Source: an uncultured Actinomycetota bacterium (GTDB lineage Bacteria > Actinomycetota > Humimicrobiia > Humimicrobiales > Humimicrobiaceae). From it: a stretch of DNA of 64,000 bases. A model generated the notes under the pieces. It had not been told where the DNA came from, searched no databases, and worked only from the letters and a program-made list of their open reading frames with translations. The stretch's first letter is position 1; each line of letters opens with the position of its first letter. Location: contig CAZQQX010000006.1 in the NCBI GenBank assembly GCA_964595565.1, forward strand, positions 2,817-66,816, written 5' to 3'. Below are positions 35,604-51,119 of the stretch, one piece after another. Made by a program: the position numbers and the translations under genes.

Positions 35604-35660
35604 TCTTAATCTCCCCGCTATTTTTTATATTGTTATTTATATATATTGTTATTTTTTAGT

Positions 35661-37151: not shown

Positions 37152-37604
37152 TCTTTTTATGCCTTCTCTGTATTTTCATTTATTTCTTTAAGTATTTACC
37201 TTTTAAGTATTCACATAATTTAATTAAATCTAATATTCATTATTTATTCCTTAAAAGAAGATAGTATTCCCCCCGGGGGTGTTTTTACCTGGTTAACACA
37301 GGAATTTTTTAGAATTTTTATTTATATGTAAATAAATTTGTAGATGCAGTTTAATGGAAATATATATATAAAATAAAAATTCCAGCCGGCCAGGCTTAGA
37401 GACTTCGCCAGCAGGAATTATCTTTTAGCCATAAAAACGTACTTATTAGCTTTTTTGTTCGACTAAATTTTATTTTACAAATTCCCATGACCTGTTAGTG
37501 AAACACGCTTATTAATGCTACTTTTAAAAAGTTTAGATATAATAGCATAACTACTGTGCAAGTCAACTCAAAAAAATATTAAAACTAAAACTTTTATCTA
37601 AAAA

Positions 37605-37646
37605 AATAATGGCACATATTTTATGAACAAAATATGTGCCATTATT
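37605..37646. terminator. bidirectional intrinsic terminator (perfect 18-bp stem, 6-nt loop)
   Basis: AATAATGGCACATATTTT-atgaac-AAAATATGTGCCATTATT, flanked by an A-run on the 5' side and a T-run on the 3' side, so both transcription directions see a U-tract after the hairpin. Confidence 0.6.
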
Positions 37647-37695
37647 TTCATTATTTTTACCGGTAATCCAGGCTGCCTGCAATATTTTATATTTT

Positions 37696-37920
37696 TTATT
37701 TCTTCTGATTCTTTTCTTTTTCTGCAGCTTCCAGCATTTTTTTTGCTATTCTGAGCTCAGTTTTTCTCCTGGTTTCTTCGGTATAAACTCTGAGCTCGGC
37801 TACCAGCCGATTGTATCTGGTAATATATATAGTATCCCCTAAATTTTCTGTTAAATACTTCGTAAGATTGACCCTTAATTCATTGGTATCAATCTTTTTT
37901 ACTTCTTCTTCGTAAGTCAT
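37696..37920 (-). CDS. Phd/YefM-family antitoxin-like protein (orphan)
   Basis: IDTNELRVNLTKYLTENLGDTIYITRYNRLVAELRV matches the Phd/YefM N-terminal fold signature; SD AAGGGGTG 5 nt upstream of the ATG; no toxin partner in either flank. Confidence 0.55.
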   Translation of the reverse strand: MTYEEEVKKIDTNELRVNLTKYLTENLGDTIYITRYNRLVAELRVYTEETRRKTELRIAKKMLEAAEKEKNQKK

Positions 37921-38140
37921 TTTTCACCCCTTAAAATCTTTAACATATACAGAAATTACCCTTTACAATATTTTAAAAATATAAATTTTTATCATTATCT
38001 CATATTTAAATAATAATATCTATAATAAATTTATTAAATTTTATATTTTAGATTATATTATAAAACAAATTCAAAATTATTTAAATACTTTTTTGAAAAT
38101 TATATTTTTAATTTATAATAATTATAAATTAAAAATATTT

Positions 38141-39238
38141 TTAACCGGGATGTCTGAGCAGTACATATATATACCCCAGCATTTTTGAGATATCAATATG
38201 GATAAGTAAAAGAGGAACAAAAAGAACCGATAACAACTTTTCTTTCAGGTTAAAACTACAGCCATCTTTATTTTTAAATAATTTAAAGAGCCTCCAGTAC
38301 GATTTATATATATAAAGAGCAAAAAGAGGAATATATACAAACAGAATCCAGCCGCTTATATAAATCGCCATCAATATAATTAATACAAATACCAGAAGTG
38401 CAGCAAATCTTATAATGTGCCGGTATGCATACATCCTGCCCGCCGCATCTCCTCCTGCATACCTGAAAAACTGTTTAAATATCTGTACAGGATTCTTCCT
38501 CATTATCCAGTAGACTACGGCATCAGAATTAAACTTTATCCGGTAGCCTGCTTTTTTTATTTTAAAATTAAATTTCATATCCTCGCCATAATCCATATCC
38601 TCGGGGTAACCACCTGCATCAGCCCATACTTTCTTTTTAAAACTTGCATTTCTGGATGAAGGCATATAATTACCACTTTTTATTTCTTCTTTAAAAGGCA
38701 TAATACACGCGGCCAGGCACTTCTGCACAAAATTACTGCAGTATGGTATACTCAATCCTCCTATTACATCGCATGAAGGATCATCATAAAACTTCGTAAT
38801 TTCCACTAGCCAGTTCCTGTCAAGGATACATCCGGCATCGCTCACGCAGATAATCTTGCCTGATGCATTTTTTATTGCTTCATTTCTTCCCCTGGAAATA
38901 TTTGCCCCGTCTTTCTTTATTATCTTCACCTTTACCGGCCCGGAATCATTCTTAATGTTTTTAAGCTCTTTCTTTTTTTCTTCTTTCATTTTTCGGTCCG
39001 GCAGTGCTACCGAAAATACTTTATTTTTATCCCTTGCTGCCCTGTCTTTAAAAAAGGTTAATATACTCTCACGGGTACCATCTTCCGAGCCCCCGTCAAC
39101 TATAACTATTTCTCCCGGGATATGGCTCTGTTCAACCAGGCTTTCCATAAATTTAACAATGCTTTCCTTTTCATTGTAAACTGTAGTTACAAAGCTGACA
39201 TTGCCAAGAATTTCTCTTTTATTTTCTTTCCCGTTCAT
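38141..39238 (-). CDS. family-2 glycosyltransferase with C-terminal membrane anchor
   Basis: GT-A motifs (VSFVTTVYNEKESI...IVIVDGGSEDGT) plus about three C-terminal TM helices. Confidence 0.8.
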   Translation of the reverse strand: MNGKENKREILGNVSFVTTVYNEKESIVKFMESLVEQSHIPGEIVIVDGGSEDGTRESILTFFKDRAARDKNKVFSVALPDRKMKEEKKKELKNIKNDSGPVKVKIIKKDGANISRGRNEAIKNASGKIICVSDAGCILDRNWLVEITKFYDDPSCDVIGGLSIPYCSNFVQKCLAACIMPFKEEIKSGNYMPSSRNASFKKKVWADAGGYPEDMDYGEDMKFNFKIKKAGYRIKFNSDAVVYWIMRKNPVQIFKQFFRYAGGDAAGRMYAYRHIIRFAALLVFVLIILMAIYISGWILFVYIPLFALYIYKSYWRLFKLFKNKDGCSFNLKEKLLSVLFVPLLLIHIDISKMLGYIYVLLRHPG

Positions 39239-40185
39239 ATTAATTTTCTGTAATATAATTTAAACCCTTTAAAATAAGAAAAAAGCCTGGGCCTGTTTTC
39301 CCCGCCCGGCCTGAATACGGTTAATATTGAAAAAAGCAGTATCCGGTTTAAAATTCCTGCCTGATAAATCAGGCTTAACAACACAGCATGCATCCTGGAG
39401 TAATTCTTTTTAAAATATAACCTCCTGCTTTTCCATATCCCGGCTTCCCTTGCAGCCTGGTTTCTGGAAGCAATACCACTATCGGAATGTTTTATCACCA
39501 CACCGGGAAAAAAATAATTTTTAAAATTTTTCCGGTGTAATTTCAGACAGAGGTCGGTATCCTCACTGAACATAAAATAATCTTCATCAAACATGCCAGC
39601 CTGAAAAAAATAATCTTTTTTTATAAACATAAACGAACCTGTCAGCCAGTCTACTTCTCTTATCCTGCCATGGTCCCACCGGCTTAAAAAATATGCACCA
39701 AAAATGCGGCTTTTTTTAAATATTCTGTAAAGGAAATAGCTTTCATAAAACTGGCGGGCCAGTGTAGGAAAAGACCTCGGGCTATATTGCAGGGTTCCGT
39801 TCGGGTTTAATGTTTTTGCTCCAACCACACCCACCTTTTCACTTTTTTCCTTTTCATTATAAAAATTAATCAAATCATTAAGATTCCCGCTTATAAGCTC
39901 CGTATCAGGATTTAAGAATAAAAGGTATTTCCCTTTCGCTTTCAATACGCCTGTGTTTGAAGCTTTTGAAAAACCGGGATTACTTTTATTTTCTATTAAA
40001 TGTAGTCTGTCCTTTCCTTTGCTCAGTCTTTTTAGATATTCAACACTTCCATCATCTGAGTTATTATCAACAACCAGTATTTCACAGTCAGGTCCCTTTT
40101 CTTTTGCATCACAATCAATACTTTTAAGACATCTCTTTATAAAATCAAGACTGTTATAATTTACAATTACAATACTAATATCCAA
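39235..40185 (-). CDS. family-2 glycosyltransferase
   Basis: ISIVIVNYNSLDFIKRCLKSI...VVDNNSDDGSVEY. Confidence 0.8.
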   Translation of the reverse strand: MDISIVIVNYNSLDFIKRCLKSIDCDAKEKGPDCEILVVDNNSDDGSVEYLKRLSKGKDRLHLIENKSNPGFSKASNTGVLKAKGKYLLFLNPDTELISGNLNDLINFYNEKEKSEKVGVVGAKTLNPNGTLQYSPRSFPTLARQFYESYFLYRIFKKSRIFGAYFLSRWDHGRIREVDWLTGSFMFIKKDYFFQAGMFDEDYFMFSEDTDLCLKLHRKNFKNYFFPGVVIKHSDSGIASRNQAAREAGIWKSRRLYFKKNYSRMHAVLLSLIYQAGILNRILLFSILTVFRPGGENRPRLFSYFKGFKLYYRKLI

Positions 40186-40222
40186 TTATTATCCCCGTAT
40201 TAACTCATTTTTATTATTTAAA

Positions 40223-41863
40223 TTAATTTCCTGCCTGATGCTCTTCCATGATTTTATTGATTATTGAAATCAAATTCTCCTCAAATTTAATATCTGAAAA
40301 CCTCCTGCAGCTTAAAATTGCATTATTTATTATTCTCTTTACATCTACCTTCCCTTTTATTATATCCAGAGTTATATCCTTAAGCTCCTTCCGGCTACTG
40401 AATAAAAATCCATTATATCCGTGTTCAATAATTTCTTTCTGCCCGCCTTTATTTATGACCACAGGGATACAGCCTGCGGCCATTGCTTCTACGGTAGTAA
40501 TCCCAAAATGCTCAAATTTCTCGGGATGGGCTTCTTCGTCCTCCCCCATTCCCGAAGCATGCCAGAAAATAAATGACCCGGCAAAAACTTTAACCAGTTC
40601 TTTCCATTCAATATTGGTAATCACTTTTACAGGATAGCCTCTGGCTGCAGCAATTACCTTTTCTACATATTTCAGGTGGTCCGGCCTTTTGCTCGCTCCC
40701 CCCGCCAGGTACAGGGTATATCCCTTCATTTGCCCGGGATATTGTTCCAGCAGCTGCTTGAAAATCTCTACCATCTCAAGCTGCTTCTTATTATGATGCT
40801 CGGGGAAAAACCTGCCGACGCTTAAAATAATCTTTTCTTTCTTTTCTACCCTGAAACTGTCCGTATCTACAGGGGGATAAAGAATCACACTATCCCTTTT
40901 CCATAATTTCTTTATCCATTTTTTTGAGTACTCGGATATAGTAATAATTTTATGATAAGTTTCAAGAAACCTTAAATTGTCGGGAAAAGTTATCAGGAAT
41001 AAAGGGATATATCCCAGAACTTTTAAAATAAATTTTTTTAAAAGGTTTATTTTCCTCTCATCATATATAACCACTCCCAGACTCCTGGAATCTTCTGAAT
41101 CACTGTATTCTTCAGAGGGTTTAAAGGTGCTGGATGAAACCTGTATAATTGTAAATTCATTTCTGGTATCCAGTGGAACCCTGACAATTTCCATGGAACC
41201 CTTTACTAAACTGATATCCTTATCATAAATAGGTCTGTTCTCTTTTGCCTTCCCTTCAAAAACCTTAATGTTTACTTTCATCAGGTCCAGCGCGCTCGCT
41301 TCCGGATTCTTTAAACCCAGCTCCATATACTGTTCGGATTTCATTACCTTTAATTTAATCTTTCCGCTGCTCCAGCTGCCCCTCCTGAGTAAAAATCTTT
41401 TGGGCTCATATATACCCTCTTCCACCTCTATCTTATCAAAACCCTCTATCAACCTGCCTGCAACCTTAAACAGCCATATTGCCGGTTTTCTGAAAAAAAA
41501 TAGTAAAAACCGGTGAATAAATTTGAAATCTACATCAAAAGGAGTCGGGAAATAACACAAATATAAATTCCCGGAGCTATACGCAGGAAGCGAGCTTAAA
41601 TAAGTGGCATTTATAAAGAGGTCATATTTTTTAGTTATTTTTGCAGCATAATCTTCCGATATAAAGGGAAATATTTTTAAATTAACTTTATTTAAATCAA
41701 GATTCAGCCTTCTTGACACCTCTTTAAGGTCGGCAAATATATCGGTTATTATATCTACACTGTATTCTTTTTTTTTAGATAAGACTTCTGCAATTTTGCA
41801 ACTGTATCGTTCCCCGCCTCCGGCCGTTGAAAGGTACCTATCGTAAATAGCAATCCTTTTCAT
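40223..41863 (-). CDS. family-4 (GT-B) glycosyltransferase with extended N-terminal region
   Basis: C-terminal EHFGITTVEAMAAGCIPVV...GFLF retaining GT4 signature. Confidence 0.75.
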   Translation of the reverse strand: MKRIAIYDRYLSTAGGGERYSCKIAEVLSKKKEYSVDIITDIFADLKEVSRRLNLDLNKVNLKIFPFISEDYAAKITKKYDLFINATYLSSLPAYSSGNLYLCYFPTPFDVDFKFIHRFLLFFFRKPAIWLFKVAGRLIEGFDKIEVEEGIYEPKRFLLRRGSWSSGKIKLKVMKSEQYMELGLKNPEASALDLMKVNIKVFEGKAKENRPIYDKDISLVKGSMEIVRVPLDTRNEFTIIQVSSSTFKPSEEYSDSEDSRSLGVVIYDERKINLLKKFILKVLGYIPLFLITFPDNLRFLETYHKIITISEYSKKWIKKLWKRDSVILYPPVDTDSFRVEKKEKIILSVGRFFPEHHNKKQLEMVEIFKQLLEQYPGQMKGYTLYLAGGASKRPDHLKYVEKVIAAARGYPVKVITNIEWKELVKVFAGSFIFWHASGMGEDEEAHPEKFEHFGITTVEAMAAGCIPVVINKGGQKEIIEHGYNGFLFSSRKELKDITLDIIKGKVDVKRIINNAILSCRRFSDIKFEENLISIINKIMEEHQAGN

Positions 41864-41874
41864 AAAAATACCCG

Positions 41875-43287
41875 CTAAAAATTTCTAATCCAGCTTTTTA
41901 TAATTTTATCCTGAATCCTGTGGTCAGTTCTTATTTTAATCCTTCCTGTCAGATTTTTGGGCAATAAATAGAAAAGTTCAAAAAATACTCTAATTCTTGC
42001 AGGTATGTCAACCCTTTTTTGCCTCATACCCTTTAACAGACCTGATAGATAATATAAAATATGAATCAAACCTGAAACAACAAACGTCAGATAACACCTG
42101 ATAAACAGGAGCGGCCAGCCACACTTGAAAATCATTAGAAGCCTATTTCTTATTACATAATAGGTAAAATCATAAGACCATTCCCTGCCCGTGCCACAAT
42201 GAAAATGCCTGGCAACAGAACCGGGAGCAAAGAAATTTTTCCAGCCTGCCAGTCTTGCCCTCCAGAACAAATCAATATCCTCATAATAGGTAAAAAAACT
42301 TTCGTCGAAATAACCTGTTTCCTCCAGCATTTCCCTGTCAAGCATAATACTGCTTCCGGAAAGGCCAAAAACTTCCTCAACGCGATTATACTGGCCTTCA
42401 TCAATACTTTCCATACCCCTGTCTCTGCTGTAAAAAGATTTATTTATCTTAACGCCACAACTATTGATTATATCCTTACAGTTAATAAAATACTTTTTAG
42501 GGATTTTTATTTTTATTGTCTTTAATCTTTTTGAGAGTTTTACATCCTTTACTATTTCTTCACCTACTACTACCTGTAAGTTATTCGGTGAGATATAAGT
42601 TGCCGCTTTGAACTGCAACTCCATATCTCTTTCAGTGTTTGCCACCGGTATGGCAAGTATCGCATTGTCCTGTGTCCAGTGATAACTTCTCCCGTTACTG
42701 TCAGACTCAGCAGGATAGAACCCGTCCAGGTACTTAATATTATTTTCTAAAGGGTTATTATAATCTACGGCACCATTACCATCATTTATTATGGTTAAGT
42801 CACATATTTTAACCCCCAGTCTTCTTGATTTTTTGCTGTTTTTATTTTCACTCTGGCCGGTACAGCGGGTAATAATCTGAAAAGGAAGATAACTGTAATA
42901 AAAAACCACTTTGGAGCCCACAGCTCCTATTTTTGAATCACCGGTTGATTGTTTGAAAATAGACAGCATTTCAGACAACCAATCTTTTTCTACGATACAG
43001 TCATTATTTATTAAAGCTATATATCTGCCTTTTGAATGTCTGAATCCTTCATTATTCCCGCCGGCATAGCCCCTGTTCTCCCCGAGTGCGATTACTTCCA
43101 CCCACGGAAATTCTTTTTTTACAAATTCTACTGAACCATCGGTAGAGCCGTTATCGACCATTATTATCTGAATTTTATCAGCAGAGTAATTAAGACTAAT
43201 AATAGAATTAAAAAGATTTTTTAAAAATAATTTGCCATTAAAATTTACTGTTATGATTGATATTAAAGGGTCATCATCCTCGCTCAA
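41875..43287 (-). CDS. family-2 glycosyltransferase (large, about 470 aa)
   Basis: LISIITVNFNGKLFLKNLFNSI...MVDNGSTDGSVEFV. Confidence 0.75.
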   Translation of the reverse strand: MSEDDDPLISIITVNFNGKLFLKNLFNSIISLNYSADKIQIIMVDNGSTDGSVEFVKKEFPWVEVIALGENRGYAGGNNEGFRHSKGRYIALINNDCIVEKDWLSEMLSIFKQSTGDSKIGAVGSKVVFYYSYLPFQIITRCTGQSENKNSKKSRRLGVKICDLTIINDGNGAVDYNNPLENNIKYLDGFYPAESDSNGRSYHWTQDNAILAIPVANTERDMELQFKAATYISPNNLQVVVGEEIVKDVKLSKRLKTIKIKIPKKYFINCKDIINSCGVKINKSFYSRDRGMESIDEGQYNRVEEVFGLSGSSIMLDREMLEETGYFDESFFTYYEDIDLFWRARLAGWKNFFAPGSVARHFHCGTGREWSYDFTYYVIRNRLLMIFKCGWPLLFIRCYLTFVVSGLIHILYYLSGLLKGMRQKRVDIPARIRVFFELFYLLPKNLTGRIKIRTDHRIQDKIIKSWIRNF

Positions 43288-43318
43288 TTAAAACCTCACC
43301 TTACCTTTAATCAGGATA

Positions 43319-43717
43319 CTAGCTTCTGGAAATTACAATTACCCCGATCGTTATTACAATTGCTCCTATCCAGCGCACAGGATTAACATCCTCTTTCAAT
43401 ATAAATTTTGAAAGAACAAGCACCATTACATATGTAAAACCAATAAATGGATAAGCAAAGCTCAAATCCACTACAGATATTACTATAAGCCATATAGCAG
43501 CAGAAATTACATATAAAAACAGGCCGGTTAAAATCAGGGGGCTTTTTATCACCCCCAGAAATAATTGCTTTAAAAAATCAAACCCTTCAATATTGACTAT
43601 TCCGATACGATTTATCCCTATTTTTAATAGTAATTGTCCCCCGACGGCTATGGAAATACTCAGCAGTATTAGAAGTATAGAACCTGTTAAACTCAAATGC
43701 CCGCTCCTTTTAATCAT
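43319..43717 (-). CDS. small 4-TM EamA/SMR-like membrane protein (putative lipid-linked sugar flippase subunit)
   Basis: 132 aa, four predicted TM helices, DMT-superfamily half-size architecture, embedded in a GT cluster. Confidence 0.5.
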   Translation of the reverse strand: MIKRSGHLSLTGSILLILLSISIAVGGQLLLKIGINRIGIVNIEGFDFLKQLFLGVIKSPLILTGLFLYVISAAIWLIVISVVDLSFAYPFIGFTYVMVLVLSKFILKEDVNPVRWIGAIVITIGVIVISRS

Positions 43718-43772
43718 AATTTTAAGTATTTATTCTTATTAAACCCGCTTTTAGAAAAATCACCAGTTAAAA

Positions 43773-46094
43773 TTATATTTTCTTTACAAGATAATATCTA
43801 TTGGAAACTGAAAGCCCGATTATCCTGTCAATATTCTCAAAATCCCGCAACAGGACTTCCAGTTTCTGGTCAATGTCTATAACCGTTCCCGATTTATTTC
43901 TGGGTTTAAATCCCCCCAGAATTTCTCTCAGGCTGCTGATATTATAACCCAGATTTTTAACTTCTTCATAAAGAGTCCTGAAAATATTAAAGTATATAAG
44001 TAAGAGCCTCTCACGGTTTTTACGATTTAGTTCATTAATTTCCCTGTTTATCTGTAGCTGGATATTATTATTAATGGCTTTAATTGATTCATTGTAGCTC
44101 TTTCTTAAATTCTCAAAATACATACTGGTAAGAAGATACATATATCTTCTTAGCTTTCCTTTTATGGTTTTATCTTCCGTAAGCTCCTCTGAACCCAGAA
44201 TATCCAGCCGGCTCAAAAGTTTCAATTCATCAAAGTTTTCCTTATTTAATTTTATTTCAAAAAGTTCAAATAATTCATTTTCTCCATATACCTCGTCCGT
44301 CTTATTACCACCGACAAATACCGGATTCTTTTCAAACTTATCCCATATTCCTTTTTCCATGATTTCAAATCCTGCATTTTTAAATATAAATTCAATGGTA
44401 AAATCATCAATCCTTGAACCTGTTCTATCTTCCCTGCTTCCCTCACCCAGAAGTTTATAAATTCCTCTCTTTTCTGGCATGGAAAAAAATAACAGGCCTT
44501 CTTTTTTTAATTTTGAAGCCAGCACATTTGTCAGGTCATAGAAAAATTTTGGAGTAATTTTTAGAAAAGCGTTATTTAAAATAATTCCATCAAACTTTGT
44601 TCTCTGGGTTATTTTAGATTTCAAAATCCCGACTTTATCCAGGCCCGAATATTCATCTTCATCATCAGATAAAACAAAGTCACCGTCCACTTCAAGATTA
44701 AAAATTTTACCCACATCTTTTTTATTTATAATATCTTCGTCCCTGTATTTATTAGAAGTTATTTTTAAAACATTCGCGCAACCCTCAAAATTCTTCTTTA
44801 TAATTCGCGAAATCTTACTATTCTGTAAATCTATCATCTCAACTATTTTTTTCTTATCCAGTGAATAATAAGAATTAACACAATATTTAACCAGTGGTTC
44901 AGTTACATTTTCCCAGTAAAACCGGGGAGCAATCCTATTTAAATTTTTACTATAAATTTCTTTTAAGCTTTTATTGGTAACCACACTTTCTATTACTCTG
45001 GCAAGCTGGTGCGTATCCTCATAACTTACCACCTCACCAATATTCTCGCTCTTTACAATTCGTGCAATAGAATCACCCTCGGTGGTTATTACAGGAAGCC
45101 TCGCCCATATGTAATCAATGACCCTGGTCCTGTAGGAAAATTCCGTTTCAATCCTGTCACTATGAATGGATAATCCCGCATCCGAATCCAGCAGAACAGC
45201 CTGCCTCAGGTCATACGGGGTCCATTCATTAAAAAATATATTTTTATCATATAAATCCAGCTCTTTTGCCAGATTTATAGCTTCCACACACTTTTTCATC
45301 CGGGGAAGCTTGGGGTCAGGGTGATTTACCCCCATAAACACCAGCTTTATATCTTTCCTGTTTCTTGTAATTTCCCATATTGCTTTTATCGCTGTGGTAG
45401 GGTCAAGCCAGTTCCATATTCCACCTCCCCATAAAACTAACTTATCTTCTTCACTAACGTCAGGTACAATATCCCTTATGGAAAAATTATTGCGCCGGGG
45501 CGGTTCGGAAGGTATGCCGGAAGGTACTATATCTATCAAATTTCTTAAAGTATTGTCGGAGTCATAATTGTATGGATTGATCCTGCCCATAGCATTCAAC
45601 ATTCCTACCCAGTAATCCCTCTGTTTTTCACTTGCACAGATAAAAAAATCTCCAATGGTAAGCTGGAGCTTTAATATATTTAAATTATTCTTATCAATCC
45701 TGAGTCTTTCTACCATATCACTTTCCCTGAACATCTCCAGGCTCTCAAGATTAAAGGGATTATAAAGGTCTACAATAATCTTTCCCTTAAAGTTTTTCAG
45801 GAAAGGAAAATAATAAAGGATATGCCCCTGTATTAATATAATTTCAGAATTCTCAATGCTTCTCTGCAGGCTCTTATAGCTATTTAATTTATACTGCCTG
45901 GTTCTAAATCCTTCGATATCAATATCTACTCTGTTGGGAGTAAGTAAAGTAACATCAAGATAATTGGATAGAATCTTTGCAAATTCATAGAAACGTATGC
46001 CGGGCCCGGCCATTTTTTTACCAATTACATCATAGCTTATGATACATATTCTTGATCGATTTTTCTTGCCAGGTTCAACAACTTCTTTCTCCAT
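43773..46094 (-). CDS. multidomain protein: GT4-like glycosyltransferase fused to a methyltransferase-like domain and a C-terminal coiled coil
   Basis: The N-terminal approximately 400 aa carries a GT-B retaining motif (ETEFSYRTRVIDYIWARLPVITTEGD). The middle region FDGIILNNAFLKI...GLLFFS resembles class-I SAM-MTase motifs. The tail is heptad-rich. Confidence 0.6.
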   Translation of the reverse strand: MEKEVVEPGKKNRSRICIISYDVIGKKMAGPGIRFYEFAKILSNYLDVTLLTPNRVDIDIEGFRTRQYKLNSYKSLQRSIENSEIILIQGHILYYFPFLKNFKGKIIVDLYNPFNLESLEMFRESDMVERLRIDKNNLNILKLQLTIGDFFICASEKQRDYWVGMLNAMGRINPYNYDSDNTLRNLIDIVPSGIPSEPPRRNNFSIRDIVPDVSEEDKLVLWGGGIWNWLDPTTAIKAIWEITRNRKDIKLVFMGVNHPDPKLPRMKKCVEAINLAKELDLYDKNIFFNEWTPYDLRQAVLLDSDAGLSIHSDRIETEFSYRTRVIDYIWARLPVITTEGDSIARIVKSENIGEVVSYEDTHQLARVIESVVTNKSLKEIYSKNLNRIAPRFYWENVTEPLVKYCVNSYYSLDKKKIVEMIDLQNSKISRIIKKNFEGCANVLKITSNKYRDEDIINKKDVGKIFNLEVDGDFVLSDDEDEYSGLDKVGILKSKITQRTKFDGIILNNAFLKITPKFFYDLTNVLASKLKKEGLLFFSMPEKRGIYKLLGEGSREDRTGSRIDDFTIEFIFKNAGFEIMEKGIWDKFEKNPVFVGGNKTDEVYGENELFELFEIKLNKENFDELKLLSRLDILGSEELTEDKTIKGKLRRYMYLLTSMYFENLRKSYNESIKAINNNIQLQINREINELNRKNRERLLLIYFNIFRTLYEEVKNLGYNISSLREILGGFKPRNKSGTVIDIDQKLEVLLRDFENIDRIIGLSVSNRYYLVKKI

Positions 46095-46179
46095 TATTTC
46101 TCCTCTGCCGCTTTAAAAATTATCCAAAAGCCTTTTTACGTTAAAAACTCCAGGTTATTTCTTTATTTCAAGATTGCAA

Positions 46180-47226
46180 TCATTTTAACTCTAATTTATT
46201 TAAGATTAAATGATTTTTTAATTTAATTATCAAATTACAGGGTAGAAACAGAAAATTTATAAAATAAGCATAAAATAAAGGCAGAAACTGGTCAACTGTT
46301 GACTCTTTCTTTAACCATCTCAGCTCGGCTCTAAAAAAAACTTTTAAAAATGTCAAAAAATCCATATTGATTATTGCACATCTGATTCTGTTTTTATGGT
46401 AAAACCTGTAGAAATTTCTGCTGAATTTTTTTACTGAAGCTCCTTCAAAATGCCGGGCAACAGAATCGGGGTTTACTACAACTCGCCTTTTAATTTTTTT
46501 AAGTTTAAGACAATAATCAAGTTCCTCAAAATAAGCAGGGCGATACCCGGCATCAAACCCGCCCAGATTACTGAATAACCTGAAATCCGTAACAAAAAAA
46601 GCTCCGGTAACATAATCTACATCTTTTATTCTATCTTCACGGTACAGCTCGCCTTTCCCATTTTCAGTCTTCCCTGTTTCATTCTTAATAACAGAATAAT
46701 CTTTTCCGGAATTTATATGATAGGTAATGAAATTATCTCGTATTCTCCCTCCATAATGCTGGATGGTGACACTGTTATAATCAAGAATGAGTCCTCCTGC
46801 AGCTCCTATCCTGACTGACCGGGATTGTCCCCTGTTTATTTTTTCATTTACCGCTTTATAAAAAGAAACCATTTTCTTTAAAGAGCCCCTGTTAATATAG
46901 ATATCCGGATTTAATAAAATTAAAAACTCCGGCCCTCTGCCGGTATTTTCCTTTTTTGCTTTTATGAAATTAAAAAACGCATGATTAACCGCACCTGCAA
47001 ATCCGATATTTTTCCTGAGTGCAATTAGTTTGAAATTACCGGCATCTAACCCGGGATACATATTCCTGAATTCTCTTATTTTTGTAACTGTTTCATCTTT
47101 AGAAGCATTGTCGGCTACAATCAGAAACCACTCTGTATAATCCTGGGCAATTATTGAATGAAGGCATTTTTCAATAAAATTCTCACTGTTATAAGTAACA
47201 ATTATTATCAGGCTTTTATAATTCAT
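46180..47226 (-). CDS. family-2 glycosyltransferase
   Basis: IIIVTYNSENFIEKCLHSIIAQDY...VADNASKDETV. Confidence 0.8.
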   Translation of the reverse strand: MNYKSLIIIVTYNSENFIEKCLHSIIAQDYTEWFLIVADNASKDETVTKIREFRNMYPGLDAGNFKLIALRKNIGFAGAVNHAFFNFIKAKKENTGRGPEFLILLNPDIYINRGSLKKMVSFYKAVNEKINRGQSRSVRIGAAGGLILDYNSVTIQHYGGRIRDNFITYHINSGKDYSVIKNETGKTENGKGELYREDRIKDVDYVTGAFFVTDFRLFSNLGGFDAGYRPAYFEELDYCLKLKKIKRRVVVNPDSVARHFEGASVKKFSRNFYRFYHKNRIRCAIINMDFLTFLKVFFRAELRWLKKESTVDQFLPLFYAYFINFLFLPCNLIIKLKNHLILNKLELK

Positions 47227-47302
47227 AACGAAAAAATTAATAACAGAAATATTTTGAATACTTGCATCTTTTTAAATATAGCATCCGTGCTTGCTTAAAT
47301 AT

Positions 47303-48877
47303 TCAGTGAAATATTCTCCTTTTAGCAACTTTAAAATAACCATATATTTTATAAATCAGATTCTTGCTGACGATTCCTTCAAGCTCGGATATTCTCCTGT
47401 CCCTTTCTTCTATCATTTGCTTCTGCCGGAGAACTATCTCATCAATATTCCTCAGGGCTTCTTCTCTGTTTAGAAATAATTTCCTTTCCTTCCCTTTATC
47501 CGGGGAAAATACAGGGTTTCTAACCCATTCTCTCAATCTTAAGGTAGTCCTAGTGAAATTAAAATTTTTCAATGCATAAATTTTTCCCGCAGCTGCAGTT
47601 TTTTCCACCTCACTGCGATGTGCTGCCATGTAAATTAATTTATCGCTTAATTCATTATAATCATAAGGTTTAAATGTATAACCAATTTCTTCTTTTTCTA
47701 TAATATCTGTCAATTCACACACATTTGAAGACAGCACGCACAGACCGGCTCTGAACCAATCCATAATACGGTTTTTACTGCCCAGCCTGACTTCATAAAT
47801 ATCTTTATCAATGTTTATACCGGCATCAGCTTCAAGGTAGTAATTCGGGACATCTTCTCCGGGTACCCATCCTTTCATTATAAATCTATCTTTATAAGAG
47901 CTTTCATTTATCATGGAAAGAAAATGAGGATAAGTTTTCAGGTCCTGTTCGGGAATCTCGCCTCCAGTTGATACAAATTTAATATCAGGATTTCTTTTCA
48001 TGGCAATTATCAGTCCTTTAAACAGGGTATCAACATCTGTCCAGGTGTTATATCCACCGGTCCAGAGAACCACGAAATCCCCTTCTTTTATGCCATATTT
48101 TCCCCTGATTACTTTTCTGGTATGTTTATACCCCGTTTCAGGGATACCACATGGAATCACATCTGTAAAATCATAACCGGCGGTATAGCGGTTAAGCCTG
48201 CCCGCGGCTCCCAGCTCTCCTATTAAAGCATACTTCTGTCTTGAAGATACACAGGAAAAACCATCCGCCGCGGATATAATATTATACTCACTGTTCCAGT
48301 AATGGAAAAGACACTCATCACTGCCGTCCATACAGGCGCGCGCCTGTGCTTCGGCCATTACATGGCCAAACAAATCAGCCCGAAACGGTATATCTTTATT
48401 AGAATAACTGATTAGTTTGGACAGAATATATGAAGGATAAAAAGTACATCCAATAGCACAGTCAGGTTCGAATTCATTAAATATCCGGGACATAATTTCA
48501 ACATTCTCAAAATCCTCTTTTCTCAATATGTTGTACTCAAAGCTATATTCAGGACTGCCCTTTATCCCACTATCAACACTGACAGAATTACCGGCATACG
48601 CTTTCCTGTCCCCCATGCCTCCGGAGTTGCTGCTTTTAAAATAACCGGAATTCTTTTTATTTACCGGGCCACCTTCACTATAAACAAAATTTTTCTTATG
48701 CTCTGACTTGTAACCATCAGGATATGCTGAAGGAACAGCATAATTACATACACAAATTTTATGGCCCTCCTCTAACAGTGGCAGCAAAAACTGCCATGTT
48801 CTTATACCGGTTCCATATACCTTCCTGTCATTTTCAAATGGAAGGGGGCTCATGCCTGCTATAAATATTCTGCTCAT
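47303..48877 (-). CDS. GT-B (GT4-like) glycosyltransferase with C-terminal coiled-coil tail
   Basis: Two Rossmann-like halves and a heptad-rich C-terminus; weaker signature than the other GT4 genes. Confidence 0.55.
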   Translation of the reverse strand: MSRIFIAGMSPLPFENDRKVYGTGIRTWQFLLPLLEEGHKICVCNYAVPSAYPDGYKSEHKKNFVYSEGGPVNKKNSGYFKSSNSGGMGDRKAYAGNSVSVDSGIKGSPEYSFEYNILRKEDFENVEIMSRIFNEFEPDCAIGCTFYPSYILSKLISYSNKDIPFRADLFGHVMAEAQARACMDGSDECLFHYWNSEYNIISAADGFSCVSSRQKYALIGELGAAGRLNRYTAGYDFTDVIPCGIPETGYKHTRKVIRGKYGIKEGDFVVLWTGGYNTWTDVDTLFKGLIIAMKRNPDIKFVSTGGEIPEQDLKTYPHFLSMINESSYKDRFIMKGWVPGEDVPNYYLEADAGINIDKDIYEVRLGSKNRIMDWFRAGLCVLSSNVCELTDIIEKEEIGYTFKPYDYNELSDKLIYMAAHRSEVEKTAAAGKIYALKNFNFTRTTLRLREWVRNPVFSPDKGKERKLFLNREEALRNIDEIVLRQKQMIEERDRRISELEGIVSKNLIYKIYGYFKVAKRRIFH

Positions 48878-49060: not shown

Positions 49061-51070
49061 ATGAGATTTATAATAATAATACTTCTAATTATTTTTTTAT
49101 CAATAAGCACCCTTTTAAGCATCGCCGTAATCAGTACAACAAAAGACGCCGAAAGCCGGGAAACCACTGCAGAAGGGCCGCTATCAGCAAAACCAAAAGA
49201 TAAAAATAAATTACCTGTCTCAAGGGTAGAAACAATAAATGATATACAAAAATTTTTTATTACTAATCGCGAATACATAAGTAAAGATATCAGTGACACC
49301 CCGGCCGGGGATACTGCTGATGGCCCTGAAACTCCGGATGATAAGGATGACAGTTCTTTAGATTCTGCAAACCAGGATGCAGAAGTAGCTGATAATAAAC
49401 AAAACGAAGATAGAGAAAATACGGATGAAGAAGAAACTACGGAAGAAGAGGAAGAAAACAGAGAAGAGATAAAAGCCGGTACCATAAAATTTTTTCTGGA
49501 TGGAGATATGGAAAACGGCATATACCTCGGGGAAACAACTTCAAACCTTGAATCTGCGGAAGCATTACAGCTGTACGGTGAGGATTTTATAAATACAGGT
49601 TTTAAATTTAACATTAAAAATGACAGTAATCTTAATCTTGAAGCCGGCTCTAACCACTATATTTATATTTACTTTTACACCCGGCAGTCAGAATGGGGCT
49701 ACACAAGACAACAGGTAAGTTTATCCGGAGAAGAAAAATGTGAGAAAAAAATTACCATATTTGTAGAAAAACCGGAAGATAAGATTATAACCTCCAGCCT
49801 AAAGATAATTAAAGGATGGGCTGTTGACCTTAGAAACAAAGAAAACCCCGGAATATCAAACATTGAAATCTACCTTGATGGACCGGAGAGTTATGGAAAA
49901 TTTATCGGGAACGCTGAATATGGAACCCCTAGAGAGGACGTTGCCGGCTATCTTGAAAATTCAAACTACTTAAATAGCGGTTATACATTTGAAAATCTGA
50001 TTGACCTTGAGCCCGGTTCCACCCACACTATATTCATTTATGCCTTTAGCTCCGTGGACAATTCGTTTAATTATGAAACAAGAGATATTTACTTATCCGG
50101 GATAAGAGAAGAAAAAGCAATAATTAATGCCAGGATTGACACACAAAAGTTCAATGATGAGAACATTATTGAAATAACCGGACTGGCAATTGATAAAAAT
50201 GTCCTTGAACAGTACCTTGAAGAAAAACGAAAGGCCGTGGAAGAGTCTTCAACAGATACCGGCCGGTACAATACCAAAAAAATAATATTTAATTCCAATA
50301 GAGATGGTAATGAAAATATATACAGTATAAATATTGACGGTACAGGACTCACCCGCCTGACCGGCAGCACTGGCAGCGACCTGTATCCGGAAGTATCGCC
50401 TGATGGAGAAAAAATTGCCTATACTGCTGATATAGGCGGGGTCTGGCAGATTATGGTTATGGACTGGAATGGTGATAATAAAAAGCAAATTACCACGGGC
50501 AACCATAGATGTGCCTATCCTTCCTGGTCTTATGACGGAAAATATATATATTTTGAGATATATAGTGATGGAGACTGGGAAATATATAGAATTAAAAGCG
50601 ACGGAACAGAGCAAAAAAGGCTTACCTTTAACCGCGACTCCCATGACTGGCACCCAACCGGGCATCCTTCTGAATATATGGTTATCTACGAATCAGGAAC
50701 TACCGGACATGAAAATATTTATGTAATGAATCACGACGGCTCCGGAAAAAGAAAAATATGTACTGATGGGCCAAGAAGAAGGGTCCCGGATGTATCACCG
50801 GACGGAAGTAAAATAACTTATATGAGATATTCTGATAGATACGCTGATATCTGGATTATGGATTATACCGGCCAGAATGAAACCAGGTTAAACAGCAACC
50901 CTGAAGAGGACGGCCACCCATCTTTTTCACCTGATGGGAAATATATAATTTATGAAGAAAGAAAAGGCTCCCGCGAAGATTTAATTTTAATAGATCTTGT
51001 CACTGGAGAAAAAACCAATCTGACTAATTCTTCATATATTGATAAAGATGGCAGTTTCCTTTACCGATAA
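49061..51070 (+). CDS. signal-anchored protein: acidic linker, two copies of an approximately 100-aa unassigned domain, and a C-terminal PD40/TolB-like beta-propeller
   Basis: N-terminal hydrophobic anchor, a D/E-rich segment, two internal repeats (IKFFLDGDMENGIYLGE... / IEIYLDGPESYGKFIGNAEYG...) and TolB-type PD40 repeats (NSNRDGNENIYSINIDG...SPDGEKIAYT... WSYDGKYIYFE). Confidence 0.7.
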   Translation: MRFIIIILLIIFLSISTLLSIAVISTTKDAESRETTAEGPLSAKPKDKNKLPVSRVETINDIQKFFITNREYISKDISDTPAGDTADGPETPDDKDDSSLDSANQDAEVADNKQNEDRENTDEEETTEEEEENREEIKAGTIKFFLDGDMENGIYLGETTSNLESAEALQLYGEDFINTGFKFNIKNDSNLNLEAGSNHYIYIYFYTRQSEWGYTRQQVSLSGEEKCEKKITIFVEKPEDKIITSSLKIIKGWAVDLRNKENPGISNIEIYLDGPESYGKFIGNAEYGTPREDVAGYLENSNYLNSGYTFENLIDLEPGSTHTIFIYAFSSVDNSFNYETRDIYLSGIREEKAIINARIDTQKFNDENIIEITGLAIDKNVLEQYLEEKRKAVEESSTDTGRYNTKKIIFNSNRDGNENIYSINIDGTGLTRLTGSTGSDLYPEVSPDGEKIAYTADIGGVWQIMVMDWNGDNKKQITTGNHRCAYPSWSYDGKYIYFEIYSDGDWEIYRIKSDGTEQKRLTFNRDSHDWHPTGHPSEYMVIYESGTTGHENIYVMNHDGSGKRKICTDGPRRRVPDVSPDGSKITYMRYSDRYADIWIMDYTGQNETRLNSNPEEDGHPSFSPDGKYIIYEERKGSREDLILIDLVTGEKTNLTNSSYIDKDGSFLYR

Positions 51071-51119
51071 TAACTACCTTTTGCAGTTTAATATATTTTC
51101 CGGGTCCACTGTACTGCAT

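Follow-up and report, generated by a model that had tools for sequence, protein, structure and literature searches.

A conserved glycosyltransferase operon of Ca. Humimicrobiia with a likely role in synthesis of a mannose/6-deoxyhexose cell-envelope glycan

The 64,000-nucleotide stretch of DNA analysed here (the window) belongs to an uncultured member of the Actinomycetota, class Ca. Humimicrobiia, and its region 38141-48877 is the core of a nine-gene operon that is vertically inherited within that class. The operon consists of seven glycosyltransferase (GT) genes, four GT2 and three GT4-like, together with an accessory gene for a small EamA/ArnF-like membrane protein and a gene for a 74-aa protein, and represents an ordinary kind of system in a lineage-specific variant. 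Judged from its gene content, the operon likely specifies a mannose/6-deoxyhexose cell-envelope glycan, because the block ancestrally runs into a fifth GT2 gene and a GDP-mannose/GDP-6-deoxyhexose pathway. We give roughly even chances to the fuller proposal that this polymer is assembled on a lipid-linked primer according to the logic of ABC-transporter-dependent pathways, with the starter enzyme and the exporter encoded elsewhere. The features of the operon, in the order of the genes, are as follows.

47303-48877, minus strand: GT4-like GT-B glycosyltransferase, 524 aa, first gene of the operon (PF13692 38.1 bits, PF00534 35.7 bits, PF13524 29.5 bits)
46180-47226, minus strand: GT2, 348 aa, of a WbbL/"rhamnosyltransferase"-like paralog group; hydropathy shows a single hydrophobic segment at the C-terminus (PF00535 69.2 bits)
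43773-46094, minus strand: 773-aa fusion protein with a GT4-type GT-B domain (aa 1-410), a methyltransferase-like domain (aa ~428-600), a helix (aa 644-714) and a conserved C-terminal tail
44295-44813, minus strand: the methyltransferase-like domain (aa 428-600), motif I lost
43953-44165, minus strand: the single helix of ~70 residues (aa 644-714), by DSSP on the AF2 model
43319-43717, minus strand: small EamA/ArnF-like membrane protein, 132 aa, ~4 TM segments by hydropathy (PF00892 29.8 bits)
41875-43287, minus strand: GT2, 470 aa, whose GT-A domain contains an insertion of ~170 aa and whose C-terminus has a hydrophobic segment (PF00535 85.4 bits; paralogy; hydropathy)
40223-41863, minus strand: GT4, 546 aa; its N-terminal domain is enlarged (PF00534 77.2 bits at aa 338-515)
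39235-40185, minus strand: GT2, 316 aa (PF00535 89.3 bits)
38141-39238, minus strand: membrane-anchored GT2, 365 aa, last GT gene of the operon (PF00535 and PF13632)
37696-37920, minus strand: conserved gene for the 74-aa protein, closing the operon
37603-37648: hairpin with a 20-bp perfect inverted repeat and T-runs on both strands, from a terminator-like scan; likely the operon terminator

The eight ORFs of the block were all found on the minus strand at the coordinates given in the earlier note, and are spaced from a 4-bp overlap up to 85 bp. Gene order was identical in all 70 of the species-representative genomes with a sufficiently long contig (70/70), and the arrangement of the GT genes is therefore not due to chance. 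The 74-aa protein is 77-95% identical across relatives whose GTs share just 42-82% identity; searches of Pfam and NCBIfam with this protein gave no match. Its gene and the terminator hairpin had been left out of the block as the earlier note delimited it.

GT families were assigned by Pfam profile scans against the model cut-offs. PF00535 scored above threshold in all four GT2 proteins of the block, and PF00534/PF13692 did so in the 546-aa and 524-aa GT4s. The 773-aa protein gave a marginal GT4 score at full length (25.8 bits, cut-off 26.4), but its N-terminal 415 aa alone scored 27.5 bits, and Foldseek matched its AF2 model to GT4 GT-B structures, BshA/MshA/WaaG/PimA and the methylmannose-polysaccharide mannosyltransferase 7qsg among them, at E 1e-15 to 1e-11. 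The earlier calls of seven GTs were thus upheld. The 524-aa GT4, an ortholog of which was found in every relative whose contig extends to that position, is 27% identical over 273 aa to the 773-aa protein, to whose N-domain it is paralogous, and in our reading of the sequence it ends in a charged helix followed by the basic amphipathic tail seen in GT4s of the block. In the 546-aa GT4, a weak PF13439 match lies where the domains join, and there is a weak match to a monoglucosyl-DAG synthase model. The 348-aa GT2 is paralogous to the GT2s at 39235, 41875 and 29590, and the PF00535 match of the 470-aa GT2 falls in two separate stretches. Hydropathy placed C-terminal hydrophobic segments on every GT2 of the block; it also agreed with the earlier topology, giving the 365-aa GT2 two or three C-terminal TM segments, N-terminal ones being absent, and the 132-aa protein about four. 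The 365-aa GT2 belongs to a CesA-like class with the signature "D, D, (G)ED, QxxR(W/Y)".

The methyltransferase-like domain of the 773-aa protein had been taken to imply a methylated sugar in the product, a conclusion that inspection of its SAM-binding site did not support. In an alignment to a true methyltransferase (P0252), LKITSNKY stands opposite the motif I sequence LDIGCGQG, and none of the 20 aligned family members has a glycine at that position, which suggests that the domain is probably not a SAM-dependent enzyme. The domain has no significant Pfam match (the best was Methyltransf_23, E 0.23), and its AF2 model has a pLDDT of 72; the top 50 Foldseek matches in the PDB were all class I methyltransferases (E 1e-3 to 2e-2). 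It has a class I fold and is a remote homolog of these enzymes. Full-length homologs of the 773-aa protein (57-95% identity) all come from Humimicrobiia, and the family profile gave no match to PDB sequences at E<=0.01. Just 14 matches to the domain were found among 1.84 billion representatives, and those outside the family were only proteins combining a coiled coil with a true methyltransferase, one of which is flanked by GT4 genes and adjoins Wzm and Wzt with the cap-binding Wzt_C domain. Since its closest genuine relative, a methyltransferase with a coiled coil, belongs to a Wzm/Wzt(Wzt_C) cluster, the domain seems to be what remains of a chain terminator of the WbdD type; the module is degenerate, and this ancestry therefore gives no certainty about present function. 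Helix 644-714, which presumably forms a coiled coil, has low pLDDT, as expected of a monomer prediction.

The genes expected to supply the sugar donors lie downstream, on the same strand, together with the fifth GT2. The five supply genes span 23730-29480; the scores listed are those of NCBIfam models.

29590-30492, minus strand: fifth GT2 paralog, 300 aa, with a family-level resemblance to WbbL (TIGR01556 "rhamnosyltransferase" 84 bits, cut-off 200)
28521-29480, minus strand: extended SDR whose substrate is likely the product of Gmd
27377-28492, minus strand: mannose-1-P guanylyltransferase (ManC), Rv3264c-type (323.9 bits, under the cut-off of 440)
26346-27335, minus strand: GDP-mannose 4,6-dehydratase (Gmd; TIGR01472 446.9 bits, cut-off 415)
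24861-26306, minus strand: PMM/PGM-like protein
23730-24806, minus strand: PGI/PMI (NF006426 342 bits, cut-off 295)

The 300-aa GT2, which source annotations rank only as "GT2 family", has its closest paralog in the 316-aa GT2 (35% identity, blastp E 4e-52). A trp operon separates it from the GT block here, whereas it lies directly 3' of the block in ten related loci, in one of which (L086) the supply genes are contiguous with the block as well. Lineages that lack the trp insertion have a contiguous 15-gene array, in the order GT block, 74-aa gene, GT2, SDR, ManC, Gmd, PMM and PGI/PMI. The 300-aa GT2 thus ancestrally adjoined the downstream end of the operon.

Pfam scans of essentially all window ORFs of at least 100 aa detected no PF00953, PF02397, Wzx, Wzy, Wzz or ABC-2, as the earlier note had maintained for a starter, polymerase, chain-length regulator and exporter, and the sole ABC genes in the window are FtsE/FtsX. 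When a bona fide Wzm served as tblastn query, neither the window nor 82 related loci gave a match, and no starter or exporter was present within 10 kb of the operon across 70 relatives. Wzm/Wzt, Wzx and phosphoglycosyltransferase (PGT) genes were likewise missing from the window, its flanks and the related Humimicrobiia loci around the cluster. A starter and a transporter just outside the window would have undone the earlier interpretation; neither was found, the left flank being made up of housekeeping genes and the right flank of an IS1595 element followed by further GT genes. The starter genes wecA, tagO and wbpL do not lie with the other polymer genes in E. coli O8/O9a, B. subtilis, M. tuberculosis and the P. 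aeruginosa common polysaccharide antigen (CPA). By analogy, a starter and an exporter encoded elsewhere would be ordinary for such pathways, and since an unlinked starter is normal in them, its absence is less remarkable than had been implied. The ABC transporter, in contrast, normally lies inside the cluster in the model systems (O8/O9a, D-rhamnan and galactan), and its absence here counts against our preferred explanation.

The 132-aa protein, which scored 48.6 bits against the NCBIfam ArnF model (cut-off 99), had been named as a candidate export route. Among 57 species that retain all seven GTs, its gene had no match in 15, and a sixteenth retained only a 35-aa remnant; with one exception, the intergenic gap in species without the gene is down to 44-282 bp. 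Because it is absent in about a quarter of the species, the protein is an accessory, often lost component and not an obligatory exporter, which weakens the earlier suggestion. Another export candidate, the UPF0104 protein, passed the NCBIfam "flippase-like domain" model. It belongs to a separate module (56116-63699), considered here as context only.

56116-57717: polysaccharide deacetylase, a lipoprotein with a lipobox in its sequence (Pfam)
57823-59715: GT-C enzyme (Pfam)
59763-60527: ArnE/ArnF-like EamA pair (Pfam)
60694-61650, plus strand: AglJ/ArnC/DPM-like GT2 (NCBIfam AglJ 124.9 bits, under the cut-off of 325)
61916-62932: flippase-like UPF0104 protein (TIGR00374 76.6 bits, cut-off 43.2)
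62956-63699: WcaF-like O-acetyltransferase (WcaF-family 98 bits, under the cut-off of 192)

Beyond the block, the window thus holds two further GT2 genes (29590-30492 and 60694-61650), one GT-C enzyme and two further small EamA genes. The GT-C enzyme, 9 kb from the operon, is TMEM260/PMT-like, of a protein O-mannosyltransferase-type family. The surroundings of the operon are envelope-glycan genes, encoding GT-C enzymes (GT87-like and others), DPM/ArnC-like GT2s, an O-acetyltransferase, a deacetylase and flippase-like proteins. Upstream, divergently oriented genes for PD40/Tricorn-like beta-propeller proteins and small TM partners are present in nearly all relatives with a long enough contig.

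We propose that synthesis of a mannose/6-deoxyhexose glycopolymer would take place on the cytoplasmic side of the membrane, starting from a lipid-linked primer, most likely a polyprenyl-diphosphate-sugar, as in the ABC-transporter-dependent synthesis of E. coli O8/O9a polymannan, P. aeruginosa D-rhamnan and mycobacterial galactan. Donors would come from the ancestrally adjacent pathway leading from GDP-mannose to GDP-4-keto-6-deoxymannose, and three GT4s and a paralogous set of four or five WbbL-like GT2s, tethered to the membrane through hydrophobic helices at their C-termini, would add sugars singly or processively. The paralogous long-helix GT4s (524 and 773 aa) may pair, and the inactivated WbdD-type module of the latter, comprising the methyltransferase-like domain and the coiled coil, may now act as a scaffold or ruler rather than a methylating cap. 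The priming PGT and the exporter would be encoded elsewhere in the genome; after export, the neighbouring GT-C/polyprenyl-P-sugar modules, acetyltransferase and deacetylase probably decorate envelope glycans.

Synthesis of the E. coli O8/O9a polymannose O-antigen involves the GT4 mannosyltransferases WbdA/B/C, the coiled-coil methyltransferase/kinase terminator WbdD, Wzm/Wzt with Wzt_C, and unlinked WecA. The Humimicrobiia operon resembles this system in its cytoplasmic GT4 enzymes, its putative GDP-mannose-derived donors, a methyltransferase-type domain that is attached to a long helix and has its nearest true relative in a Wzm/Wzt(Wzt_C)/GT4 cluster, and a starter outside the cluster. It differs in having no linked Wzm/Wzt, in the fusion of a methyltransferase-like domain, with motif I lost and no kinase domain, to a GT4, and in four or five GT2s besides the GT4s; moreover, the product is not an O-antigen, since the host is an actinobacterium of Gram-positive lineage. 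The D-rhamnan (CPA) system of P. aeruginosa comprises Gmd, Rmd, WbpW, WbpX/Y/Z and Wzm/Wzt, with WbpL encoded elsewhere. It shares with the Humimicrobiia locus the linkage of Gmd, a following SDR, ManC and PMI to several GTs and the unlinked starter, but the Humimicrobiia operon lacks the transporter genes and has a larger GT set that mixes GT2 with GT4. The mycobacterial arabinogalactan linker and galactan depend on unlinked WecA (Rv1302), the manB-wbbL-rmlD operon, the GT2 enzymes GlfT1/2, Wzm/Wzt (Rv3781/3783), GT-C enzymes using polyprenyl-P sugars, and the small Rv3789. The manB-wbbL-rmlD operon builds the linker on the primer made by WecA (PMC9366312). Within the same phylum, the adjacent Rv3264c-type ManC, SDR and ~300-aa GT2 genes of Humimicrobiia mirror this operon, and both lineages have a paralogous GT2 series with GT-C enzymes, DPM-like GT2s and small 4-TM proteins nearby. 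Unlike mycobacteria, the Humimicrobiia region lacks the rmlA-D set, a GDP-6-deoxyhexose route replacing dTDP-L-rhamnose; neither Galf nor Araf genes were recognised in it, and its GT4 fusions have no mycobacterial counterpart. The 300-aa GT2 is WbbL-like at the family level only, its score falling under the family cut-off, and this also counts against our preferred explanation.

One alternative is that diacylglycerol, phosphatidylinositol or a similar lipid is glycosylated directly by the 365-aa GT2 or a PimA-like GT4 and then extended by the other GTs, in parallel with mycobacterial PIM/LM or Gram-positive glycolipid anchors. A PGT would be unnecessary, which accounts for its absence wherever examined, and the D..D..GED..QxxR(Y) signature, common to lipid-acceptor GT2s, and the TM helices of the 365-aa GT2, the PimA and monoglucosyl-DAG synthase matches of the GT4s, the linked GDP-mannose supply genes and the nearby GT87-like and other GT-C enzymes, as in PIM/LM synthesis, are consistent with such a lipoglycan. 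These similarities are, however, generic to fold or family and under curated cut-offs, the 365-aa GT2 is encoded by the last rather than the first GT gene, the WbdD-like module and WbbL-like paralogs point to polyprenyl-PP-linked polymers, and the flippase that would still be needed was not recognised either; we regard a lipoglycan or glycolipid as rather unlikely. Glycosylation of the divergently encoded PD40 proteins, or of other surface proteins, appears quite improbable. These proteins are anchored by a TM segment at the N-terminus, contain long acidic linkers, recur beside the operon, and have the TMEM260/PMT-like enzyme in the vicinity; nevertheless, adjacency by itself is weak evidence, the linkers are not Ser/Thr-rich (S+T 14-16%), Pfam scans of window ORFs revealed no PglB, PglL, AglB or WsaB type oligosaccharyltransferase, and a lipid-linked glycan would likewise require a starter and a flippase.

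Secretion by the 365-aa GT2 itself, acting like cellulose, PNAG or hyaluronan synthases to polymerise and translocate the glycan, was another route considered in the earlier note. In its favour, the protein carries the signature given above and matches PF13632 and, partially, PgaC/IcaA and NodC, including the region of the QxxRW-like motif; a set of 38 sequences, comprising that of the window and its orthologs, shows conservation of both GED and QFFRY. The helices fit the idea poorly, being only two or three and all C-terminal, and PgaD, BcsB or other partner genes are absent. The sole solved sequence relative is 6yv7 (355 aa, annotated as a family-2 glycosyltransferase), which we take to be PcManGT, a crenarchaeal, non-secreting "minimal cellulose-synthase-like" membrane mannosyltransferase that acts on lipid-linked glycans and presumably consists of a GT-A domain with TM helices at its C-terminal end. 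The 365-aa GT2 is similar in size and in its C-terminal helices, although the match is weak (E 6.6e-5) and confined to the GT-A core. The six other GTs of the operon imply a heteroglycan, and to our knowledge synthases do not make these; we therefore consider a synthase very unlikely. The chances are slimmer still for an intracellular polysaccharide resembling the mycobacterial methylmannose/methylglucose polysaccharides, which would dispense with starter and exporter and would agree with the failure to find an exporter or PGT in the window or related loci, the 7qsg match, the adjacent GDP-mannose genes and the methyltransferase-like domain. It is at odds with the loss of motif I, the membrane-association segments on all GT2s, one of them an integral membrane protein, the membrane protein gene within the operon, and a neighbourhood of genes that modify extracytoplasmic glycans.

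The ArnF-like character of the 132-aa protein recalls the three-component systems ArnC/ArnE-ArnF/ArnT and GtrA/B/V, but the seven-GT block has no ArnC-like GT2 or GT-C partner and its single EamA gene is dispensable. The full architecture of such systems, a DPM/ArnC/AglJ-like GT2 with a half-size EamA pair and a GT-C enzyme, is found instead at 57823-61650, with Arn and AglJ model scores all under their cut-offs.

The earlier note had described seven glycosyltransferase (GT) genes and one small membrane protein gene in a block at 38141-48877, and all eight open reading frames were found there on the minus strand. We assigned a gene to GT2 when it matched PF00535 above the Pfam gathering score and carried conserved acidic (DxD-type) motifs, and to GT4 when it matched PF00534/PF13692 above the gathering score and had a GT-B two-Rossmann fold. 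All four GT2 calls (38141-39238, 39235-40185, 41875-43287 and 46180-47226) passed, scoring 67.4, 89.3, 85.4 and 69.2 bits where 23.3 is required, and Pfam, together with the motifs conserved among orthologs of the 365-aa GT2, places them in CAZy GT2 (GT-A, inverting); sequence searches of solved structures with four GT2s returned generic GT-A matches only. Two of the three GT4-like calls fell above the gathering scores of GT1-group/GT4-like families, namely GT4_546 at 40223-41863 (77.2 bits, PF00534) and GT4_524 at 47303-48877 (38.1 and 35.7 bits, PF13692/PF00534). The third, the 773-aa fusion protein at 43773-46094, was marginal at full length (25.8 bits against 26.4), and its N-terminal 415 residues alone passed (27.5 bits). 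An AlphaFold2 model of this protein, whose mean pLDDT was 63.6 with higher values for the N-domain, matched the GT4 GT-B enzymes BshA, MshA, WaaG and PimA in Foldseek at E values of 1e-15 to 1e-11; by eye, no clear canonical EX7E motif was seen around residues 316-327, and the family profile had no sequence match in the PDB. By Pfam scores and modelled fold, the three genes belong to CAZy GT4 (GT-B, retaining).

Neighbouring genes of the block overlap by 4 bp at the closest and lie 85 bp apart at the most, and two features are found at its 3' end:

37696-37920, minus strand: conserved 74-aa ORF that closes the GT operon, 3' of the block
37603-37648: perfect 20-bp hairpin with T-runs, terminator-like, 3' of the 74-aa ORF

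Given this tight packing, the 74-aa ORF and the hairpin, the nine genes probably form one transcription unit of about 37650-48877. An Rfam search of the window matched tmRNA only, with no riboswitch or leader near the operon, and a promoter scan found 57 candidates against a shuffled expectation of 50 +/- 8, which is not above chance.

Homologs of the 773-aa protein carry the names Actinomycetota and 'Candidatus Humimicrobiaceae'. When each GTDB species was represented by a single genome, 70 loci with a homolog were recovered, all in Actinomycetota metagenome-assembled genomes; Ca. Humimicrobium oleiphilum UBA1414 and Ca. Hydromicrobium are among them, and the matches were full-length, at 57-95% identity. 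When the window proteins were compared with these loci by tblastn, the order GT4(524)-GT2(348)-GT4(773)-[EamA]-GT2(470)-GT4(546)-GT2(316)-GT2(365)-74-aa gene was identical wherever the contig reached, and a PD40/Tricorn-like gene pair with small transmembrane (TM) partners lay upstream in nearly all loci extending that far. From the shared gene order we conclude that the operon is a core locus, inherited vertically in the class, rather than a variable serotype locus. Such class-wide conservation, as opposed to the hypervariability of O-antigen and capsule loci, marks the product as a core envelope polymer. Ca. Humimicrobiia is a deep, uncultured, low-GC class of Actinomycetota, and the literature on Humimicrobiia/UBA1414 held nothing on envelope glycans. 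The 74-aa protein is more conserved than any of the GTs, being 77-95% identical even where these are only 42-65% identical. It had no family match in Pfam or NCBIfam, its N-terminal half resembles Phd/YefM antitoxins by eye, and it could be a regulator.

The earlier note had also reported the absence of a canonical starter, polymerase, chain-length regulator and exporter from the window, and this held up. A Pfam scan of essentially every window ORF of at least 100 aa gave no match to PF00953, PF02397, Wzx, Wzy, Wzz or ABC-2 families, and the sole ABC system in the window is FtsE/FtsX. No window ORF matched PF01061 (ABC-2), no Wzm/Wzt pair is encoded in the cluster, and neither the window ORFs nor the inspected flank ORFs matched PF01943, PF13440, PF04932 or PF02706, leaving the Wzx/Wzy pathway equally unrepresented. 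A genuine Wzm permease, taken from locus L084, found no tblastn match in the window or in the 82 related loci searched, and its Wzt partner matched only FtsE and an ABC-F protein in the same set. Neither the window nor, in relatives, the 10 kb around the cluster encodes a WecA/TagO-type phosphoglycosyltransferase (PGT).

A starter and a transporter just beyond the window, the finding that the earlier note said would overturn its claim, did not turn up in the flanks. The left half of the window is housekeeping (IlvD, Fpg, tmRNA/SmpB, a CtpB-like protease, a PcsB-like M23 peptidase, FtsEX, prfB, SecA, HPF and SahH), as is the flank to its left, with YggS, MurI, RNase PH, Ham1, trigger factor (Tig), ClpP and ClpX. 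On the right, the same strain has a radical-SAM/SPASM gene, an IS1595 transposase, an NYN protein and another DPM/ArnC-like GT2 before the contig ends. A relative with a 757-kb contig (Ga0307434_1000001) continues the island with a DPM-like GT2, three epimerase/dehydratase genes and an AsnB-like amidotransferase, as well as a second UPF0104 protein, an 836-aa GT2+GT1 fusion and a protein of 11 TM segments that is weakly GT87-like; these flanking regions contain neither a PGT nor a transporter of the ABC-2 or MOP type. We also collected 117 non-syntenic ORFs (75 clusters) from the 70 loci, read 20 representatives by eye (chosen by TM count, Walker A motif or recurrence) and Pfam-scanned three. 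Those inspected comprised an atp operon, transporters, DedA, epimerases, isoprenoid genes, GT-C enzymes and DPM-like GT2s, with no PGT, Wzx, Wzy or ABC-2 among them.

The C-terminal half of the 773-aa protein bears on how chain length may be controlled. In the model, the GT-B domain is followed by a Rossmann-like domain (aa ~441-573) and a helix of about 70 residues (644-714). Modelled alone, the middle domain (aa 428-600) reached a pLDDT of 72, and all 50 of its best PDB matches in Foldseek were class I SAM methyltransferases, although the matches were weak (E 1e-3 to 2e-2, TM 0.4-0.5); the only Pfam match in this half was Methyltransf_23 (E 0.23). A profile of the domain found just 14 matches in 1.84 billion representative proteins, 12 of which were the family itself (its own representative and apparent fragments of members). 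The other two, P0252 and P0253, each combine a coiled coil with a bona fide methyltransferase, and the pairwise E value between the middle domain and P0252 is 2e-9. Motif I, (D/E)xGxGxG, is the SAM-binding loop after strand 1 of class I methyltransferases; the alignment (FEGCANVLKITSNKYRD / FSGCHNVLDIGCGQGYF) shows it replaced in the window's domain, with LKITSNKY opposite LDIGCGQG of P0252, and a glycine is missing from the motif I positions in all 20 family members compared, which are 40-74% identical to the domain of the window. Because the motif is replaced in all members examined, we rejected an active methyltransferase as improbable, and the methylated sugar that the earlier note had predicted from the fusion loses its support.

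The P0253 gene lies in a textbook ABC-transporter-dependent cluster that encodes Wzm and a Wzt whose Wzt_C domain recognises the cap, with GT4 genes on its flanks, and the methyltransferase-like domain, which in the 773-aa protein is joined to the long helix, is homologous to this coiled-coil methyltransferase. Since motif I is lost and the relative sits in a Wzm/Wzt_C cluster, the C-terminal half can be read as what is left of a chain terminator of the WbdD type that joined a GT4, lost SAM binding and probably persists as a scaffold or ruler. GT4_524 is paralogous to the N-domain of the 773-aa protein (27% identity over 273 aa) and likewise ends in a charged helix and a basic amphipathic tail, making a pairing of the two proteins plausible.

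The genes that would supply the sugar donors lie beyond the trp operon, which directly follows the block in the window and in close relatives:

30803-37151, minus strand: trp operon (trpE, D, C, F, B, A), separating the GT block from the fifth GT2 and the GDP-sugar genes
28521-29480: extended SDR, no specific NCBIfam assignment
27377-28492: mannose-1-P guanylyltransferase, Rv3264c-type (NCBIfam, below the model's cut-off)
26346-27335: GDP-mannose 4,6-dehydratase (NCBIfam, 446.9 bits against a cut-off of 415)
24861-26306: PMM/PGM-type mutase (NCBIfam)
23730-24806: bifunctional PGI/PMI (NCBIfam, 342 bits against a cut-off of 295)

In distant lineages (L039, L041, L045-47, L052, L065, L067, L070 and L086), the block runs directly into the homolog of a fifth GT2 (29590-30492, 300 aa), after which come the homologs of 28521-29480 (SDR), 27377-28492 (NTP transferase) and 26346-27335; in L086 the co-directional array continues with PMM and PGI/PMI and, at the SahH position, with a cut gene that carries no annotation. 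Because these deeper-branching relatives have no trp operon at that position, the trp operon is an insertion into an older glycan cluster. The linked Gmd, PGI/PMI, ManC and PMM genes make it very probable that the donors are GDP-mannose and a GDP-6-deoxyhexose, and the operon product would then be a mannose/6-deoxyhexose heteroglycan. The ManC-SDR-300-aa GT2 trio parallels the manB-wbbL-rmlD operon of mycobacteria, as known from M. tuberculosis (PMC9366312). The 300-aa GT2 itself is paralogous to three GT2s of the block (28-35% identity) and best matched the TIGR01556 'rhamnosyltransferase' subfamily at 84.2 bits, against a cut-off of 200; a homolog search for a WbbL annotation returned only the name 'GT2 family glycosyltransferase'.

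The reading that we favour, and to which we give about an even chance, is that the operon makes a core envelope glycopolymer on a lipid-linked primer from GDP-mannose-derived donors, with starter and exporter genes located elsewhere. Assembly would take place at the inner face of the membrane, where membrane-associated GT2 and GT4 enzymes would add the sugars following the logic of ABC-transporter-dependent pathways, and extracytoplasmic tailoring could be carried out by the GT-C/polyprenyl-P-sugar module at 57823-61650, an O-acetyltransferase and a deacetylase. The gene families and their folds, the synteny, the donor genes, the loss of the motif and the lack of linked export genes are observations; which acceptor and sugars are used, in what order the enzymes act, whether there is a ruler and how the product is exported are inferred. 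A lipoglycan anchored on diacylglycerol (DAG) or PI would need no PGT, and we regard it as unlikely while giving it some weight. Glycosylation of the adjacent PD40 surface proteins by the operon product seems very doubtful, and an intracellular methylmannose-like polysaccharide barely credible. Glycosylation of flagellin or of a serine-rich adhesin was rejected, since neither flagellar nor accessory-Sec genes occur nearby and SecA is of the canonical type.

Three export routes had been suggested in the earlier note, and they fared differently. Synthase-type secretion through GT2_365 (38141-39238) is highly improbable: CesA-like motifs (GED, QFFRY) are conserved across 38 sequences of this enzyme (the window's and its orthologs), but hydropathy predicts only two to three TM helices, all C-terminal, and its sole solved sequence relative is 6yv7, a family-2 glycosyltransferase of 355 aa and a minimal membrane GT2. 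Its score against the PgaC model was 60.8 bits, with a cut-off of 422 (NCBIfam). The protein at 43319-43717 is a half-size EamA protein of about four TM helices whose best NCBIfam match, ArnF, reached 48.6 bits against a cut-off of 99, and the operon contains no ArnC-like GT2 or GT-C gene with which it could form an ArnE/ArnF-type partnership. Its gene had no match in 15 of the 57 species with an intact GT series and is reduced to a 35-aa remnant in one more; in all but one of the loss species the gap between the flanking genes is down to 44-282 bp, and the losses are scattered over close and distant relatives alike. A gene missing from 15-16 of 57 species is not an obligatory exporter. The junction where the 773-aa GT4 gene meets the EamA gene, which is the site of these repeated losses, also holds an insertion in one species (L049, 2954-6582) that brings a citrate-transporter-like gene, an MBL-rhodanese gene and two YeeE/YedE-like genes into the operon, which therefore tolerates insertions at this point.

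The UPF0104 protein at 61916-62932 passes the NCBIfam 'flippase-like domain' model (TIGR00374) and may be considered a speculative export candidate; the window has this one copy, and the 757-kb relative has it together with the second, directly after the 836-aa GT2+GT1 fusion. A joint reading, in which UPF0104/TIGR00374 MprF-flippase-like proteins, which recur in this glycan island, would export a lipid-linked heteroglycan assembled in the cytoplasm with no Wzx, Wzm/Wzt or synthase while the 773-aa and 524-aa pair would act as a cap-independent, WbdD-derived length ruler, is in our judgement quite unlikely.

The systems closest to the envelope glycopolymer pathway that we favour are the E. coli O8/O9a polymannan, the P. 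aeruginosa CPA D-rhamnan and the mycobacterial linker/galactan genes. The Humimicrobiia locus works like these, yet has no Wzm/Wzt in the cluster, and its terminator-like module, unlike a WbdD-type terminator, appears inactivated and is fused to a GT4. In mycobacteria, WbbL works on the polyprenyl-PP-GlcNAc primer made by WecA, and wecA is unlinked. The locus is thus a known type of system in a lineage-specific form for which an unlinked starter is normal, and its sole unusual points are the lack of a linked, recognisable exporter and the fusion to a pseudo-methyltransferase. As things stand, a GT cluster with unlinked starter and exporter is ordinary; should genome-wide scans confirm that no canonical exporter exists, the locus would be a lead to a new lipid-linked glycan flippase. 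The fusion, as an apparently inactivated terminator module joined to a transferase, bears on glycan chain-length control, and the operon could shed light on how the wall glycopolymers of actinobacteria, among them the arabinogalactan linker, lipomannan and rhamnans, evolved.

Several further observations were made around the operon. The region 57823-61650 is a complete three-component module consisting of an AglJ/ArnC/DPM-like GT2 (plus strand), two adjacent ArnE/ArnF-like half-size EamA proteins and a TMEM260/PMT_2-type GT-C enzyme, which implies extracytoplasmic glycosylation from a polyprenyl-P-sugar. The GT-C enzyme (57823-59715) and a lipoprotein polysaccharide deacetylase (56116-57717) have in common a C-terminal domain of about 150 aa (45% identity) that is possibly a substrate- or wall-binding module. 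At 49061-54063 lie tandem duplicated modules, each with a membrane-anchored PD40/Tricorn-like beta-propeller protein bearing an acidic linker and a small multi-TM protein; the propeller proteins are 42% identical to each other, the small partners (153 and 176 aa) are 38% identical and without a family match, and almost every relative with a long enough contig has the pair of modules beside the GT operon.

Farther from the operon, prfB (release factor 2) has a classical programmed +1 frameshift site, CTT TGA, at about 15852 on the minus strand; the ORF at 14814-15539 covers only PCRF positions 103-194 and the RF-1 domain, the N-terminus lying upstream in another frame. A truncated short-chain dehydrogenase of 111 aa at 9233-9568 (minus strand) matches only the C-terminal part of its model, and a 63-aa FAD-binding fragment lies beside it in a sister contig (L007); these fragments (neighbourhood 8850-9700 of the window), next to the tmRNA gene at 9747-10099, are likely pseudogene remnants. 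Just past the right end of the window, an IS1595-family transposase and an NYN-domain gene are inserted (L079, 1729-3478) between the radical-SAM/SPASM gene and the second DPM/ArnC-like GT2, and several assemblies of this strain break at most about 0.3 kb past the radical-SAM gene, about the insertion point. The radical-SAM/SPASM enzyme (332 aa; 63942-64000 plus L001 40-1038) is conserved directly beside a WcaF-like acetyltransferase and the UPF0104 gene.
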